Assembly: GCF_006345805.1 (NCBI RefSeq)
Contig: NC_042997.1
Location: 53,320,001 to 53,384,000 of the forward strand
Length of the DNA stretch: 64,000 nucleotides
DNA from: Octopus sinensis
Lineage: Eukaryota
Reading direction: 5' to 3'
In this document: positions 9,709-55,821 of the stretch, one piece after another
How the letters are laid out: the number at the start of each line of letters is the position of its first letter
Numbering within the stretch: the first letter of the stretch is position 1
Translations under genes and position numbers: made by a program
The notes under the pieces: generated by a model
What the model saw: only the letters and a program-made list of their open reading frames with translations
The model's database searches: none
Told to the model about the DNA's origin: nothing

Positions 9709-11355
9709 CACTGGCCAAAATAATCTTAAGACCGATAATGACAGTTCTATTCCTTCATTAATATATTTTAAACAAAACTATATGAAATTATTTTACTTTT
9801 TACAGTTATGTAGAATTTTTTTCTTTCGAATGATATAGGCGTTCTATATCATTCTACAATTTGAATAAATTTAATGCGCAATTAATTCAAATGATTAGAA
9901 ATTGTCGGTAAAATAAGTTTAAGACCATACCAAGATTATACAAATTAATAAACCAAATGGGTGGTCATGTGGCTAGTCGTACTGCACTCTTTTTTTTTTC
10001 TTAATAATCGAGCATTGTTACACATTAATTTACTATGGGAAAGCATCGTAGTCTCAGCCCAGTTACTAAAGCAACGATCGCATTGCATCATCAGTATAAT
10101 CTGTCCTTCAGGAACATTAGCAAGCAATTAGGATGCAGCAAAGCGGTTTGTGTTCAAGGATGGAAGCTTTACCAAGCTACTGGCCAATACATAGATCGGC
10201 AAAAAACGGGCGCTCCGAGAAAAACAATAGTACAGGTGGATCGGCGAATTCATAAGCTCTCTGAAGATAACCAAATCCTAACAGCAGTGGACATTTGCAA
10301 GCAATTAGCTGATGAAACTGACATCAGCTTTACACCACAAACTGTCAGAAACCGGCTAAAAGAATTTGGACTGTTCAACCGGATCGCTGGAAAGAAGCCA
10401 ATAATTTCTGAGACGAACCGGCAGAAGTGGATCAAGCTTGCTAAACGCCATACTGAATGGGCGGCCGAAGACTGGTCAGAAGTTCTTTGGAGTGACGAAT
10501 CCCGCTTCTGCATCTTTGGATCAGACGGAAAGACTTATGTTAGACCCCGTCCAACTGAAGACTTCCATCCTAAGTGTGTCAAGAGGACGGCGCAAGCGGG
10601 AAGTATGTGTGTGTGTGTGGGGGGGTAATTGGGTGGGCCGCATTAAGTAGCTTAGGTGTTGGTCCAATTGTTAAGGTTGATGGCAGACTGAACAGTGTAG
10701 GCTATCTGCAATTGGCAAATGAAAACGTGCTGACATATTTAAATAATCAGATGCCACCGGGATCTATTTTCCAGTAGCACAATTGCTCCGTTCATAAAAC
10801 TAGGTAAGTTTTGCAATATTTTGAGCGCAATAATATGGTGGTTATTGAGGGGCCTCTGCAAAGCCCGGATTTGAATCCGATAGAAAATTTATGAAATTAT
10901 GTTTCTAAAAGAGTTCATGCTAAAAAACCTACAAATTTGTCCAATTATATAATTGTATTGAAGAATATGGCAGAACATTCCAAGTGATTTTTGTGCTCAT
11001 TTGTCGAACTCCATGTCCGGCCGCTGTGAGGCCGTAATTGAAAATAATGGCTATGGAAATGGATACTAATAATAAATTTTTGTTCGTTGAACATTTGTGC
11101 CGTAAATTTTTAATTTAAACAAAATAATGTTGGTACATTCTTAAACTTTTTTTACCAACGATTTTTAATCATTTGAATTAATTGCGCATTAAAATTATTC
11201 AAATTGTAGAAAGATATATAACGCCTATATCATCCGAAAGAGAAATATCCTACATAAACTGTTAAAAGTAAAATTATTTTATATAGTTTTATTAAAAATA
11301 TATTAATGAAGGAATAGAATTGTCATCATCGGTCTTAAACTTATTTTGGCCAGCG
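9709..11355 (+). mobile_element. Full-length Tc1-like DNA transposon (IR/DR type), defective
   Basis: TA TSDs (9707-8, 11356-7); ~230-bp TIRs (9709-9939 / 11124-11355) each with an internal direct repeat (aaaataa(t/g)(c/t)ttaagacc). Confidence 0.95.
10035..11069 (+). pseudogene. Tc1 DD34E-type transposase pseudogene
   Basis: Paired-like HTH, GAPRKT, WSDESRF, degraded FQ*HN, SPDLNPIENL motifs; frameshift at a (TG)n/G-run near 10605-10625 and several stops. Confidence 0.92.
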
Positions 11356-22313: not shown

Positions 22314-25300
22314 CTAAAAAACAAAAAAACAAAAAGTTTAGAAAAATTTATATACAGAATACAAACACACACACAAATATATATAGAAAGGGAGAGAGCA
22401 ATTTCAAATGAAATATTAATTTATCCTATGAGAACTTATTTCAATAGCTGGCTTTCATTGACATGGAGAAAGCCCTAGACCAGGTCTCCTGATCCCTTAT
22501 CTGGTGGTCAATGGGGAAACTAGGGATAGATGAGTGGTTAGTGAGAGCTGTACAAGCCATGTACAAAGATGTGGTCAGTATGGTGAGGGTGGCAATGAGT
22601 ATAGTGAAGAATTCCAGGTAAGGGTAGGGGTCCACCAAGGATCAGTCCTCAGCCCCCTTTTATCATAGTCCTCCAGGCAATAACAGAGGAGTTCAAGACA
22701 GGATGTCCCAGGGAGCTTCCCTAACCCTAACCTTGCACTAATAACTGAGTCACTATCAGAACTAGAGAAGTTTCAGGTGTGGAAGCAAGGTCTAGAATTG
22801 AAGGGCCTTAGAGTCAATCTAGCAAAAGTCTTAATAAGTAAGAAGGAAGACAAATCACAAATCCCTGCTCGATCTGCAGAAAAGGTGTGGGTAGAAACTC
22901 CATAAGATGTACCCAGTGTAAGCTATGGACACATAAGAGGTGCAGCGATATTAAGAGAAGGCTAACTGGGAAGATAGTTTTTGTGTGTGGCAAATGTTCA
23001 GGGGCAATAAACACTGAAAATGTGCAGAAAACAGCTTCCGTCACATGCCAGGGAGAAACGCCAGAAGTAGTTGATAGCTTTCATTACCAAGGTGACCAAG
23101 TCAGTAGCAGGGGTGGATACTCTAAGAGTCTAGCTGCTAGAATAAGAATAGCCTGGGTAAAGTTCAGAGAGCTCCTACCTCCGCTGGTAACAAAGGGCCT
23201 CGCGCTCAGAGTGAAGGTAGACTGTATGACACATGTGCGAACAGCTATGCTACATGTGCCGTGACTGCTGAGGACATGTGCAAGCTTGCAAGGAATGAGG
23301 CTAGTATGCTCTGCTGGATGTGCAATGTCAGTGTGCATACATGACAGAGTGTAAGCACCCCAAGAGAAAAGTTGGACATAAGAAGCATCAGACGTGGTAT
23401 GCAAGAGAGACAACTGTGCAGGTATGGTCATGTGTTGCATATGGATGAGGAAAGCTGTGTGAAAAAGTGTCACACCCAAGCAGTAGAGGGAACCTGTGGA
23501 AGAGATAGACCCAGAAAGACCTGGAATGAGGTGGTGAAGCATGATCTTCAAACGTTGGGCCTTATGGAAGCGATGACAATGGACCGAGATCTTTGGAGAT
23601 ATGCTGTGCTTGAGAAGACCTGGCAAGCCAAGTGAGACCGTAACTGTGACCTATGCCAGTGCAGCATACCCTTCAATCATTGGACAATAAACTGCACTTA
23701 CGAAGACCTGTTGAATAAAGTGAATTGTTGTGGCTGATGACAGTACCACGTGATTGGCACCCATGCCAGTGGCACATAAAAGGCACCATTTGAGGTTGAT
23801 CGATGCCAGTGTTGGCTGACTGGTTCTGTGCCGGTGGCATGTAAAAAGCACCATTCAAGCATGGTCGTTGACAGTGTTGCCTGACTGGCTCGCATGCCGG
23901 TGGCACATAAAAAGCACCATTTAAGTGTGGTCGATGCCAGTACCACATGACTGGCCCTCATGCCGATGGCATGTAAAAAGCACCCACTACACTCTTCAGA
24001 GGGCATCCAGCTGTAGAAACTCTGCTAGATCAGACGAGCCTGGTGCAGCCTTCTGGCTTGCCAGCCCTCAGTCAAACCGTCCAACACATGCCAGCATGGA
24101 AAGCTGACGTTAAACGACAATGATGATAATGATGACTTGAAATACAAGTTAAAAAAATTCTATTTAAACAAATATCTTTCTTTTACTTGTTTCAGCACTA
24201 GACTGTGGCCATGTTGGGGTACTATCTTGTTGGACAAATTAACCTTGGTACTTACAATATCTTTTCAAGTCAAGTAGTTATCTACATGTCACTGGCACAG
24301 GTGAACTCAACAATACATTATTTTATTAGTACCAACCTGAGGAGTATGTGGCAATGTTAGAACACAACCTATACGTATTCAAATAAGAAACAAAATATAC
24401 AGTTATAAATCACAATAATTTTGTTAAAAAATGATGCATATTAATTGGTAAGTCACCTCATCTTCAGGTGTAAGTTTATCACTTTTTTCCCAGGTGATGT
24501 ATTTAACTCCCCGGAGATGAGAGAGGTCTTTGTAACAAAATTCATCCTCACAATTATACCTGAAAGAAAGAAAAAAGTATTATTAAAAAAATGTAAACTG
24601 AATTAAGTGCAAAAATACATAAAGTCCAATTCATTGCAATTTCTCTGAAAGAACAAAAATAAACTGTATCAAATTTTAAGCTATACTCTTTACTCTTTTA
24701 CTTGTTTCAGTCAGTTGACTGCGGCCATGCTGAAACACCGCCTTTAATCGAGCAACTTGACCTCGGGATTTATTCTTTTGTAAGCCCAGTACTTATTCTA
24801 TCGGTCTCTTTTGCCAAACCGCTAAGTAACGGGGACATAAACACACCAGCATCGGTTGTCAAGCAATTCTAGGGGGACAAACACAGACATACAAACACAC
24901 ACACGCATATATATATATATATACATATATACGACTGGCTTTCAGTTTCCGTCTACCAAATCCACTCACAAGGCTTTGGTCAGCCCGAGGCTATAGTAGA
25001 AGACACTTGCCCAAGGTGTCACGTAGTGGGACTGAACCCGGAACCATGTGGTTGGTAAACAAGCTACCTACCACACAGTCACTCCTGCGCCTATGTTTGA
25101 ATTTCTAATACAATGAAGATACAATGATGATATGCTAGATACTGGTTTCAAATTTTTGGCACAAGGCCAATGATATGTTAAATATTAATGTAGAAATAGA
25201 ATCAGATATCATTATCCTCATTTAATGTCCATTGTCCATGCTGACATGGGTTGGACAGTTTGACCGGGGCTCGCAAGCTGGAAGGTTGCACCAGGCTCCA

Positions 25301-52700: not shown

Positions 52701-55700
52701 AAAGTTGCCATGTGGCACCTTCGACAAGTATCTTCTACTATATCCCCATGCTGATCAAAGTCTTGTGAATGGATTTGATAGACAGAAACTGAAAGCAGCC
52801 TGTCATATACATGTATGTATGTCTATGTGTTTGTGTTTCCCTGCCTTGACATCATGCAATAGCTGTAAGCATGTATCATCATCATACAAGCCATGTCTTT
52901 CATTTTCAGTCTTCTGAGACATGTCTAGCCATGGGAAAATATTATCTTCCTTGGAAACAGGTGAAGATTGGTGGCAGGAAGAGCATCATTGCTAGACCAT
53001 TATTTGGTCGACCAAATATTGCAGGTTAGCTAACATTCTCTAGCATAGCAAGTAAGGCAAAAAATTACAAACATTCCTGGTTGACAAGACTTCATCAAAA
53101 GTATAATCTTTGATATTGCTTACTGGCTATTGTAATAAATGGTCCTTTATAGAGAACTGAATGTTATGTTTTATTCTAGAGCTTTCTAAGGTCTTGTCTT
53201 GTACTGTCCTATGGTGGAAGTTGTCCTAAATTGTGTGTAAACAAATTTGAAATAGTTGTTTATCTGCTTCCTAATATTCTAAATAACATATTTGTTTATC
53301 CAACATGAATTAACATTTTCTAAACCTACAGAAAGTTATCTACACACAATTTCAGTACTATTCCCAACTTAGAAAATTAAAAATTATGTCTTCTTTAGCT
53401 TTCAGTTAGGATATATAATATTTATGAGTGGGTACTGAAAAGTTCCTTGTTTTGGGCAAAAGAAAATTCAAGAGTATCAAATTAATTATGATTTTATTCA
53501 ACATAATCCCCTCTCAGAGTCACATGCTTATTGTAGTGGTCCTTCGGTTTTTGTAAGCCCCGTAGAAGAACTTGGAAGGTTGAGCCTCCAACCAGGCCTT
53601 TTGTGATACGCTTAAAGCCGGGAACTTTGCAGCACTCCCTTGTATATGAAAAACAATGTAAAAATTTCCATTATATTAACATACCCAGAATATACTAGTA
53701 TTGGTTTCAGTTAAAGCAGTTAGTTTTGGTTTTGAAAATAGTGTTTTCTTCCTAACTTTCAGCAGGTTTCCATAAAGACATTCACATAAAGTCGGATGTA
53801 GAGGGTTTGTTGGACACAGCGTGAGACGACTGTTGTTATCACTAGGCCTAACTCATCGTAAAGTCAATACCACCATGACCGATATCCAATCTACAGTGGA
53901 GAAGGCTAGCCACTGGATTTGGTTAAAAAGAGACGATGAGCGATGGCTAGAAGTATATTCAGTTCTTCATAACCAGCTGATCTAGCAAGCAGGGCCTCAT
54001 ATCAGTGAGGGGGGGGCCAGTGCGCATTGATGCCGTCGAGAGTTAGGCCCCGGAACGGCGCGCATTCTCTCCTGATGACCCCATACACTTGCTAGCTTCC
54101 GGTATATGGAGCTTTTAACTGGTAGCACTTGCATGTGCAAGTTGTTTGCAAGACATGTTGCTGCCATTTTACATTTAGGGCCAGTTTCTTTCAAATGGGA
54201 TATGAACATTTGTGTTATATATAGTATGTGCAATGTATTTTATTGTTGGTTAGCCTTTTGAATGGGTGTATTTATGGTATTCAAACTAGTGAGAAAATGG
54301 CAATAGTTAAGTGATATGATACTAGCCGCTATTTGTAATGCTTAACAATAATATAGAATATACATGGTACATTAATCCATTCAAGAATACCATTACTTTG
54401 TTTTTAGAATCGGCCTAATTAATCATCTCAAATTACAGTCATTAATTTAGATACACTTAATTTTTCATTAATGACTATTTCATTAACAACATAGTTTTAA
54501 GCACTTTTAAATTGTAATCATGAAAAAATCTTTTACCAAGTTGGTAATTTCATTTAGTGATTCTGTGAAGCAAAATTTGCCAGCAAAGTTATAAAACATA
54601 AAAAATCAAACAAATTTACAGTTTCTCCATGACCTCTTACTTTACACTGCTCACTATTTTGAAAGGTTTAACCTATTATCATGCAAATTATACCCTCACA
54701 ATTCTAAATGCAAAAGTCACAGCAAATATTTTAGTAGCTAGTAATATATATATATATATATATATTAGTTTTGGAGTGGTACTTGTTTGGCAAGTGACTA
54801 ATTTTTCTTATTATTATCATTTATTGTTTTTAGAATTTTGTTTTCCAGTATAAGTCAAAAACATACTTATCTACTCTAAAATTGTTTAAAATTAAAAAAA
54901 AAATTTTACCAAGCGGATTACTTTGTGACTATGCCTGCATAATGACGAGAGAGGACAAAAATCTGTTCATTGAACAAAAAATACCTTGTGGTATTTCATT
55001 CCTTACAAGTTCATCCCTTTATACCCAGGTTGGCCTTGCTATATATCCCTTTTGGTGTTAATAGAATAAGTACCAGAAACAGTATGGAGGTAGATATAAT
55101 CAACTAAATACCCCAAAGCAGTTACCATAGCATTGCTGCAGTTCAGTGACTGAAACCAGTAAAAGAAATATCCGCAACATAAAACTAATTTGAAAGCATT
55201 TGACAATGATGTTTCCTTTTCTGAACTAAAATAAATAGAAAAGATATTGATGCCATCTGTCCTTAAGTACAAAACAAAACAAAAAGAATATAAAAGAGAA
55301 AATGAAAATGTCATTTGTCCTATAATATTTCTAGAGGAAGAAATTGGATTAATTTCAAAACATGAAATTAATATTACATTTTAATGTCATTGAAAGAAGC
55401 AAAGCTTATACCATGATAAAACATACAAGAGCTTTATGAAAGTCAGTTGTAGGAATTAATATCTAAGGTACAATTTCCTCAGATTTGTAGAGCACAAAGA
55501 TTGTTTGTGATACTTATGTTTTACCAAAAGTATTGGCCATGTAAAATAAAGTGTCAACAACCAAATGTTTGAAACAGGTTTGCAAAGAGAGTTTACAGGA
55601 AATTATAGCAATAAATGTACAAAAATCATGAATTAATAAGTTCTCATTTTCAATATACATACCTTTTTGTACGGACACTTGTCATCAGTTTTACATTTCT

Positions 55701-55821
55701 TTTTTAAATGTGGATTGTTATAAAAGAAATAAGGGACATGTTCTTCATGTAATACAAGATCTTGCCATAAATCTTCAGCAACAACTGTTGTTACCAAAAG
55801 AATGAACAGTCCATACATCAT
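22146..55821 (-). CDS. EOGT: EGF domain-specific O-GlcNAc transferase (GT61), 16 coding exons, 1554 nt / 517 aa
   Basis: All exons join in phase with GT-AG sites; signal peptide, [15 protein letters not shown]-like motif, [37 protein letters not shown]-terminal KTEL; recognised from recalled vertebrate EOGT sequence. Confidence 0.97.
22446..24135 (+). mobile_element. 5'-truncated RTE-clade LINE (RT remnant with embedded PHD finger, tandem-repeat 3' UTR, (GAT)n tail)
   Basis: [20 protein letters not shown]4HC3 finger, [27 protein letters not shown] motifs; stops and frameshifts. Confidence 0.9.
24457..24559 (-). CDS. EOGT: EOGT coding exon 15
   Basis: [25 protein letters not shown]...EDE. 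Confidence 0.96.
24684..25091 (-). mobile_element. SINE family A, full length
   Basis: Reverse complement of the 43578 copy. Confidence 0.9.
25465..26439 (-). mobile_element. Decayed mariner element
   Basis: Degenerate tattgg...caa termini; minus-strand [20 protein letters not shown] and [18 protein letters not shown] motifs. Confidence 0.75.
27430..27521 (-). CDS. EOGT: EOGT coding exon 14
   Basis: [30 protein letters not shown](L). Confidence 0.97.
27714..28277 (+). repeat. Identical 182-bp direct duplication (27714-27895 = 28096-28277)
   Basis: No mismatch found by eye. Confidence 0.9.
28650..29072 (+). mobile_element. RTE-related 3' end with ~62-bp tandem units and (GAT)n tail
   Basis: Shared with 23755-24135; reverse copies at ~25205-25400, 37489-37815, 39345-39840, 57910-58095, 59377-59650. 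Confidence 0.85.
29370..29995 (-). mobile_element. Penelope-like element 3' fragment: GIY-YIG endonuclease remnant plus pLTR with degenerate hammerhead
   Basis: [16 protein letters not shown]...EH...HSLQHL...[17 protein letters not shown] (C-x2-C plus His residues typical of the PLE GIY-YIG domain); CTGTTGAaGAGC..GCTCAAAAC at 29454-29481. Confidence 0.85.
30895..30922 (-). CDS. EOGT: EOGT coding exon 13 (28-nt microexon)
   Basis: tttcatttcag|A AAA ATG TCA TTT TAT GAC CAA CTA AGA|gtaagc = (R)KMSFYDQLR; required to restore phase 2->0. Confidence 0.92.
31384..31738. mobile_element. ~355-bp foldback/palindromic MITE with TA flanks
   Basis: Arms 31384-~31545 and ~31570-31738 are imperfect reverse complements. 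Confidence 0.8.
32366..32427 (-). CDS. EOGT: EOGT coding exon 12
   Basis: [20 protein letters not shown](R). Confidence 0.95.
32695..33090 (-). mobile_element. RTE LINE fragment (PHD/RT C-terminal region)
   Basis: Reverse-complement match to 22875-23270; further decayed copies ~40730-41390 and ~56100-56540. Confidence 0.85.
33353..33421 (-). CDS. EOGT: EOGT coding exon 11
   Basis: [23 protein letters not shown]; 101-bp intron upstream. Confidence 0.95.
33523..33609 (-). CDS. EOGT: EOGT coding exon 10
   Basis: [29 protein letters not shown]. Confidence 0.95.
33716..33858. repeat. ~70-bp tandem duplication
   Basis: aaaatttttgtggg...cagtgtctttcaataaacttag twice. Confidence 0.85.
34352..34650 (+). 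mobile_element. 5' fragment of a mariner element
   Basis: tattgggttg TIR start; [39 protein letters not shown] mariner N-terminal HTH. Confidence 0.8.
34934..35005 (-). CDS. EOGT: EOGT coding exon 9
   Basis: [24 protein letters not shown]. Confidence 0.95.
36500..36718. mobile_element. TTAA-flanked piggyBac-like MITE family 1
   Basis: TTAA|CCCTTTCGTTAC...GTAATGAAAGGG|TTAA; reverse-oriented copy at 44372. Confidence 0.9.
37943..38035 (-). CDS. EOGT: EOGT coding exon 8
   Basis: [31 protein letters not shown]. Confidence 0.95.
39124..39227 (-). CDS. EOGT: EOGT coding exon 7
   Basis: [35 protein letters not shown]. Confidence 0.97.
43166..43272 (-). CDS. EOGT: EOGT coding exon 6
   Basis: FAELENY...[16 protein letters not shown]. 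Confidence 0.95.
43578..43945 (+). mobile_element. SINE family A, near full length
   Basis: A-box TGGCTGTGTGG, B-box GGTTCAGTCCC, tail gtaaaagagta. Confidence 0.9.
44137..45365 (+). mobile_element. Internally deleted mariner (DD34D) element with nested MITE
   Basis: TA TSDs; ~32-bp TIRs (caaggttgtatcaagaagttcccagactagtt); QAYGNEAM and LHENN...[16 protein letters not shown] motifs. Confidence 0.9.
44372..44592. mobile_element. TTAA-flanked piggyBac-like MITE family 1 nested in the mariner transposase
   Basis: TTAA at 44368-71 and 44593-96; CCCTTTC termini. Confidence 0.9.
45758..45862 (-). CDS. EOGT: EOGT coding exon 5
   Basis: [15 protein letters not shown]...HKSPLQSW. Confidence 0.95.
46777..46877 (-). 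CDS. EOGT: EOGT coding exon 4
   Basis: [25 protein letters not shown]... Confidence 0.95.
47312..47696 (-). mobile_element. SINE family A
   Basis: Reverse complement of the family consensus. Confidence 0.9.
49129..49237 (-). CDS. EOGT: EOGT coding exon 3
   Basis: [27 protein letters not shown]... Confidence 0.95.
49472..50410 (+). repeat. Head-to-tail ~290-320-bp units each starting TCTAATATAATAAATG (Helitron-like 5' ends)
   Basis: Unit starts ~49472, 49758, 50077 and a partial one at ~50360; shared end taaaatacactttaattgaaataaagtttccc. Confidence 0.75.
51804..51898 (-). CDS. EOGT: EOGT coding exon 2
   Basis: [14 protein letters not shown]...NGW; aag acceptor, gtaagc donor. Confidence 0.93.
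53425..53642. mobile_element. Mariner-derived MITE
   Basis: TA flanks; degenerate TIRs gagtgggtactgaaaagttcc / ggaactttgcagcactcccttg. Confidence 0.65.
53791..54125 (+). mobile_element. 3' end of a HERO-type (R2 group, RLE) non-LTR retrotransposon; 3' limit approximate
   Basis: Open frame 53791-53985 [19 protein letters not shown]...[17 protein letters not shown]...*, matching the recalled HERO C-terminus; GC-rich structured 3' UTR. Confidence 0.8.
53982..54095 (+). ncRNA. Permuted, pseudoknotted hammerhead-like RNA structure in the HERO 3' UTR
   Basis: GCCG-TC, GGAA-CGGC and CTCTC-CTGATGA core strands, with stems I and III correctly abutting the core, plus additional helices. Confidence 0.6.
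55663..55821 (-). CDS. EOGT: EOGT coding exon 1
   Basis: [15 protein letters not shown]...[11 protein letters not shown]...CPYKK|gtatgt; acceptor cttacag places the exon start at 55835. Confidence 0.95.

Follow-up and report, generated by a model that had tools for sequence, protein, structure and literature searches.

A conserved hammerhead variant with a split stem II in an octopus LINE, and partial tandem copies that point to a possible circular RNA intermediate

In the 3' UTR of a high-copy LINE of Octopus sinensis we find a real, conserved and unusual variant of the hammerhead ribozyme, tied to an unreported tandem layout of the element's copies; together, these features point to an RNA circle as the intermediate of an autonomous LINE. 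In the standard model, LINE copying uses a linear RNA that is primed at its 3' end. Were the template circular instead, this would explain how an element that needs no start site of its own can regenerate full-length, source-competent copies, and would tie the R2-group LINEs to the question of what the hammerheads of Penelope elements do; likewise, internal priming on such a circle would matter for R2-type gene-insertion systems. As an RNA of about 115 nt that grips both of its products by four helices, the motif could be a compact tool for circularising RNA. As far as the literature searched shows, it would also be the first hammerhead of S-G-C strand order found in an animal genome.

The host element and its copy in the window

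The starting point was a window of 64,000 nt (contig NC_042997.1, 53,320,001 to 53,384,000), in which positions 53789-54156 of the forward strand, 368 nt in all, are the last part of a high-copy, HERO-like LINE with a restriction-like endonuclease (RLE). A first look at the 2.7 Gb genome gave 2353 candidate copies of the repeat, and the 40 scored matches included at least 29 other copies, 96-97% identical to the window piece from 53789 onwards and ending with it at 54156. The piece is thus a 5'-truncated member of what we term family A, whose full unit spans about 3.75 kb. Its first part (53789-53961) is a remnant of the ORF C-terminus, comprising the end of the endonuclease domain; the TGA stop codon of most copies lies at 53959-61, where the window copy reads TCA and is read through. 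The original prediction had the ribozyme region start at the stop codon; the family stop is in fact 24 nt upstream of that start. At 54150-54156 lies the genomic 3' end of the element, the putative start of reverse transcription, directly after which full copies continue into the 5' UTR.

Long family A copies encode a single ORF with an N-terminal zinc finger, a reverse transcriptase (RT), a CCHC finger and a PD..E.K restriction-like nuclease. The RVT_1 match lies just under the cut-off (E 8e-7, with a partial ORF as query), and the sole PDB relatives of the ORF are R2-type proteins. This domain set and the 5'-truncated copies are those of an RLE-type non-LTR retrotransposon, and the protein has neither the GIY-YIG nuclease nor the telomerase-like RT of Penelope-like elements. 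Its named relatives come from argonaut, Clytia, lancelet and hake. The 3' flanks of family A are diverse, with some microsatellites among them, indicating the largely non-specific insertion by which HERO is defined (PMC4640811); R2-Hero has further been described as a cephalopod-rich R2 type (PMC10294476). Judging from these relatives and the published descriptions, HERO is the likely clade of these elements.

The window copy itself is a dead fragment. Its GAAA block reads GGAA, the only G at that column among 45 copies; the remaining 44 have GAAA, which bears out the expectation that this is the family state, and the private A13 to G change is likely inactivating. Its G run is eight long, against six in the commonest family form. 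The piece lies antisense to an EOGT-like gene, 1.5 kb past a coding exon (55663-55821, reverse strand) that encodes a signal peptide and matches the EGF-domain O-GlcNAc transferase (E 7.7e-6), and it probably sits in an intron of that gene. Elsewhere in the window, 10029-10628 of the forward strand holds what we take to be a piece of a Tc1-like transposase, and 23084-23650 of the reverse strand another probable repeat-derived frame.

A hammerhead core with a split stem II

All the motifs of the original prediction are present at their positions in the window, on the forward strand. The 5' strands of helix P2a (53982-53994) comprise an outer segment, CTAGCAAG at 53982-89, which pairs with CTTGCTAG at 54088-95, and an inner one, GGG at 53992-94, which pairs with the strand after CUGAUGA, with covariation. 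The P4 hairpin (53995-54010; CCTCA at 53995-99 and TGAGG at 54006-10) is the third arm of a four-way junction, and is followed by a splint, GGGGCC (54013-54018), which is the 5' strand of P2b and whose first G pairs with C11.1 in the place of G10.1. The P5 5' strand (54021-54025) pairs with 54060-64, and this helix is the likely counterpart of the interaction helix between stems I and II. The 5' strand of stem III with the GUC triplet (54032-54037; GUC at 54035-37) shows the U16.1/H17 pattern of a hammerhead site with a predicted cut after C54037, and leads into the 5' strand of stem I, GAGAG (54038-54042), which pairs with CTCTC at 54067-71. Then come the P2b 3' strand (GGCCCC, 54046-51), the GAAA block (GGAA at 54052-55 in this copy) and the 3' strand of stem III, together spanning 54046-54059; the P5 3' strand, a UU linker and the stem I 3' strand (54060-54071), assigned from motif reading and covariation; and the CUGAUGA block with the P2a 3' strands (54072-54095; CTGATGA at 54072-78, CCCC at 54079-82). 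A small hairpin 3' of the ribozyme (54095-54112) is alike in sequence in seven lineages; its fold alone is not significant.

The fold had been predicted to be either knotted or intermolecular: knotted it is, and it closes within one strand, so that no dimer is needed. Nested folding of the region alone gives no signal (z 0.58), as is expected of a knotted fold, and the region matches no ribozyme covariance model in Rfam, hammerheads included. A six-helix descriptor that allows GNAA matches the 64 kb window just once, at 54072. No match came up in 300 dinucleotide shuffles of each of six example UTRs, and one in 6000 shuffles with the core letters held fixed; on 1.98 Mb of overlapping loci the descriptor gave 99 matches, 98 with a family signature and one without. 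That the hammerhead-core fold is real we regard as close to certain.

For comparison across lineages, 3' UTRs were gathered by protein homology and not by RNA motif. The octopus genome holds, besides A, families B, C and D; of ten metagenome loci, two of them decayed (L075 and L076), one (L077) stops before any motif and nine bear it, yielding six further lineages. The resulting ten lineages are 32-61% identical in the nuclease region of the protein, and every one retains the permuted hammerhead core together with the six helices, in which compensatory changes occur. The strand order is constant: P2a 5', P4 hairpin, splint, P5 5', stem III, UH, stem I, a short linker, P2b 3', GAAA, stem III, P5 3', stem I, CUGANGA and P2a 3'. 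Fish HERO 3' UTRs had been suggested to share this order with other stem letters, and distant relatives do so, including a family recovered using a fish protein as query. The two strands of the splint pair trade places between families: A has GGGGCC/GGCCCC where B has GGCCCC/GGGGCC, and C has GGGTC/GACCC where D has GACCC/GGGTC. The helix formed by AGTGCGC and GCGCATT was predicted correctly save for its two outer pairs, which are G-U wobbles in the family.

A joint MAFFT alignment left C, D and L079 out of register, and pairs were hence counted on two subsets. In the first (A3, eight sequences), 86.9% of 229 cells pair, against 44-53% in slid registers, with B and L078 partly out of register and lowering the counts; both sides changed in 12 of 29 pairs, and stems I and III are paired in 100% of cells, compensatory changes among them. 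In the second (A4, nine sequences, three helices), 94.3% pair, against 19-45% when slid, and both sides changed in seven of 14 pairs. The covariation score was reached in none of 500 shuffles, a count not to be taken as a probability, since the aligned sequences share ancestry and were themselves used to derive the structure.

The pattern of constraint is that of a catalyst. In each of the ten lineages, the most frequent letters give U16.1, GAAA and CUGANGA; all four bases occur at N7 across them; the cut-site base H17 can be C, A or U, but G is never found there; and the U16.1-A15.1 pair is fixed while all stems turn over. G12 has become A in 11 of 29 copies of family C and nine of 22 of family D, which we attribute to CpG decay in old families, as expected for dead copies. 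On these patterns, the fold is probably catalytic. Among viral contigs, two protein matches proved false and 19 pattern matches were due to chance, and a further scan of such contigs found nothing; in prokaryote genomes, 16 candidates included no relatives.

What sets the motif apart is stem II. Positions 10.1 and 11.1 are C-C or U-C and pair in none of the ten lineages, so that there is no ordinary stem II. Instead, C11.1 pairs with a G of the splint in all ten, the first splint pair being G-C throughout, and the strand after A9 pairs farther upstream; this supports the prediction that an upstream splint pairs with both would-be arms of stem II. With P4 between those helices, the result is a four-way junction without an unpaired base in nine lineages; that of family D is imperfect, with three unpaired nt by eye (the script took a different register). 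In B, D and L079 a weak ordinary stem II is possible behind a mismatch; a U-U mismatch at that position is tolerated in one natural hammerhead (PMC3088659).

The strand order, which the original prediction held to be undescribed, has already been found: type SGC hammerheads (the HRIMA-1 motif; Eckert, Friedrich, Weinberg and Weinberg 2023) have the S-G-C block order and cleave in vitro, slowly, at 0.007-0.13 per min, with 5' products of 15-18 nt (PMC10085705). The LINE motif shares with them the full core in the order site, GAAA, CUGAnGA, the 2-3 nt linker between stems I and II, and a helix joining the far ends of these stems. However, type SGC has an ordinary stem II, and its describers assume CUGAnGA to be inseparable from its stem II arm (PMC10085705), whereas the LINE motif lacks such an intact block C and receives the arm from the upstream splint via the four-way junction, with both the arm and the interaction strand upstream of block S. 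The LINE motif is equivalent to an SGC ribozyme that has been cut open between A9 and 10.1, where the SGC paper takes a break to be impossible; the novelty lies in the split stem II, with its splint and four-way junction, and not in the strand order. Type SGC was reported from metatranscriptomes only, with none in the genomes of known organisms (PMC10085705).

Among published natural hammerheads we found none in which helices meet in a junction at 10.1, and activity is therefore not assured. We suggest that the core would still fold actively despite the split: A9 would exit into P2a, the splint would supply a G-C pair beneath G12-A9, and the active site would fold as in SGC. In the literature searched, with Repbase and Dfam notes and subscription papers outside its scope, nothing was found on a hammerhead in HERO or R2-group 3' UTRs, on a splinted stem II or on the partial tandems described below, and "type-SGC" appears in one paper only.

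Partial tandems and the template for reverse transcription

A search with the 5' region of family A gave 40 loci. Collapsing DNA duplicates, namely one cluster of 13 and two pairs (the pairs with their flanks compared), left 26 independent loci. Eight of these begin inside the 5' UTR, and in all 18 that reach the element start a stretch of 5-980 nt from its own 3' end lies directly upstream, without a gap and with a junction that is identical save for point changes. These upstream pieces are variably truncated: 13 extend back through the cut site, by up to 860 nt beyond it, and none starts at the cut, which is intact in all copies of the family A alignment. The layout recurs in family B, where the start is present in three of 20 long loci, each of them preceded by its own 3' piece passing the cut site, and at one locus of family C. 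On the metagenome contigs, of which 1.5 kb upstream was covered, it was not seen. Four RNA contig sets cover the element and show no pile-up of ends; as contigs, they carry no information on ends, strand or circles and weigh neither for nor against.

In 11 loci with both ends, the upstream and downstream alleles agree at 40 of 42 diagnostic sites (20.9 expected; none of 20,000 permutations), with ten loci fully concordant, in an uneven comparison to which one locus contributes 14 sites and five loci one each. Given this agreement, the two ends of a locus come from one source. Solo 3' ends stop at scattered points, and 12 of 53 run 3-5 nt into the 5' start sequence, where we estimate that fewer than one would be expected. 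Taken with the pieces that pass through the cut site, these run-on ends imply a template that was continuous from the 3' end to the 5' start and unbroken at the cut when copied.

A segmental duplication that includes the element probably accounts for thirteen near-identical rearranged copies (the L191-L208 group, at 3.8-5.2 Mb of contig C18 of the octopus assembly, G000, and on unplaced contigs). An internal deletion junction is common to L190 on contig C2 and L194 on contig C10, marking a non-autonomous unit of about 1.15 kb that moved at least twice; a search for arrays of a deleted derivative gave two single copies and no array. Further internally deleted copies are L182, L187, L221, L227 and L273.

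The reading that best fits these observations, and towards which we lean slightly, is unit-length self-cleavage, re-joining and rolling reverse transcription on the resulting circle. Briefly, we advance the following mechanism, built on sequence comparisons. A read-through transcript of a partial-tandem copy would be cut at two tandem ribozymes to give a monomer that opens with the last 119 nt of the "tail". P2a, P2b, P5 and P3, with about 28 pairs in family A, would span the cut and keep its two ends together until either the ribozyme or a host ligase joined them. On the circle, the element's enzyme would then begin target-primed reverse transcription at an internal position, the genomic 3' end. 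The majority of events would stop early, leaving pieces like that in the window; some would pass one full turn and leave a partial tandem, again a competent source. We favour a circle because the ribozyme shows the conservation of a catalyst and still no copy starts or stops at its cut; because four helices bridge the cut, as opposed to the one helix that spans it in type I, type III and SGC hammerheads; and because a circle regenerates the upstream piece in each generation, no source beyond about 1.3 units being seen among the loci examined. In its fullest form, the proposal is that a whole clade of autonomous R2-group LINEs replicates via a covalently closed RNA circle that the elements produce with their own ribozyme, which would be a cleave-and-ligate clamp and a seventh hammerhead arrangement, breaking a block assumed to be indivisible, while the annotated 3' end would merely be an internal priming site; we would give this an even chance.

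Circular copying in a protein-coding LINE has no earlier description that we could find, though its steps have precedents. Retrozymes and the Neurospora VS RNA are cleaved, ligated and reverse transcribed (PMC6765202), a multimer being cut by the ribozyme to unit length and circularised before reverse transcription (also bioRxiv 10.64898/2026.07.22.740005); they differ in being non-coding, non-autonomous and small, with type I or III hammerheads or the VS ribozyme. Among LINEs, R2 and others that carry an HDV-like ribozyme at the 5' end are likewise RLE-type with a single ORF, and their ribozyme frees the RNA from a longer transcript (PMC6765202, PMC13580325); these systems differ in that this 5' ribozyme has the HDV fold, in that their RNA is linear with priming at the true 3' end and, in the accounts available, in lacking a partial tandem. 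A further likeness is to the Penelope-like PAc (Frangieh 2024, PMC11167929), an autonomous element with RT and endonuclease, partial tandems, a hammerhead near the repeat and an internal start of reverse transcription. It differs in its telomerase-like RT, GIY-YIG nuclease and minimal ordinary hammerhead, where the octopus LINE has an R2-group RT, a CCHC finger, a restriction-like nuclease and a large knotted hammerhead.

PAc also provides direct precedent for the strongest rival explanation, as its hammerhead needs protein and is dispensable for insertion in vitro, and its describers favour uncut multimers as templates (PMC11167929). By this route, the octopus ribozyme would be active but slow or protein-gated, and internal priming would take place on uncut, multimeric read-through RNA from tandem sources, with cleavage serving translation (by a new 5' end before the ORF) or RNA turnover. 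The low rates of SGC hammerheads (PMC10085705) are in keeping with this, and it accounts equally well for the tandem layout, the shared alleles, the passage through the cut site and the run-on ends. We consider it a serious contender and still rather unlikely: it requires a source of at least two units in each subfamily, where the longest found had about 1.3 units; each generation could, if there were no circles, only shorten the upstream piece; the four cut-bridging helices are left unexplained; and unrelated loci lack the common 5' flank that transduction would leave, both pairs checked sharing flanks in the manner of DNA duplicates.

A fold that no longer cleaves and acts as a protein-binding signal for the RT, the tandems having another origin, would agree with a cut site intact in all copies and with a junction at 10.1 that might block the active fold. 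It is improbable, since conservation follows catalysis: N7 is free, H is never G and U16.1-A15.1 is fixed amid stems that turn over. A shade less probable still is template jumping, in which the RNA would be linear, or cut and nicked, and the enzyme would form tandems by jumping between RNA ends as R2 does. The R2 reverse transcriptase reportedly copies across non-continuous templates (Bibillo and Eickbush in 2002), and could so act here; however, jumps would have had to make the same junction, point changes aside, in all 18 loci, all 13 pieces that reach the cut site go past it, and solo ends run on into the 5' start sequence. Finally, site-specific insertion of the element before its own older copies, for which the RLE element Utopia-1_NVit offers a known case of site-specific tandem insertion (PMC4640811), is countered by the 40 of 42 concordant sites, and a ribozyme that simply forms the RNA 3' end, as originally predicted, by copies that terminate about 119 nt beyond the cut; both are largely refuted and very improbable.

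Several further features were observed close to the ribozyme. In two metagenome loci, a stretch between the stop codon and the ribozyme position (L077:1240-1322 and L079:1620-1700) is tRNA-like, with A- and B-box-like segments by eye; ARAGORN called no tRNA in either. In family B (L131-L150), the 400-nt 3' UTR contains, 5' of the ribozyme, another CUGANGA-like word as well as long segments that are complementary. In family C (L255), the 5' arm of P4 is also able to pair, by six pairs, with the strand before GAAA, a possible off-switch fold. Directly after the putative priming site, the first 130 nt past the junction in family A (L212, minus strand) hold five hairpins with GAAAGA loops and different stems, four of them with 4-5 pairs (region z -2.3), where the window background is two of 101 such hexamers with stems that long. 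One such hairpin each is present in one of three B copies (L231) and in the C copy (L273:1684-1699), and these hairpins are, to judge from sequence, likely a protein-binding or translation signal.
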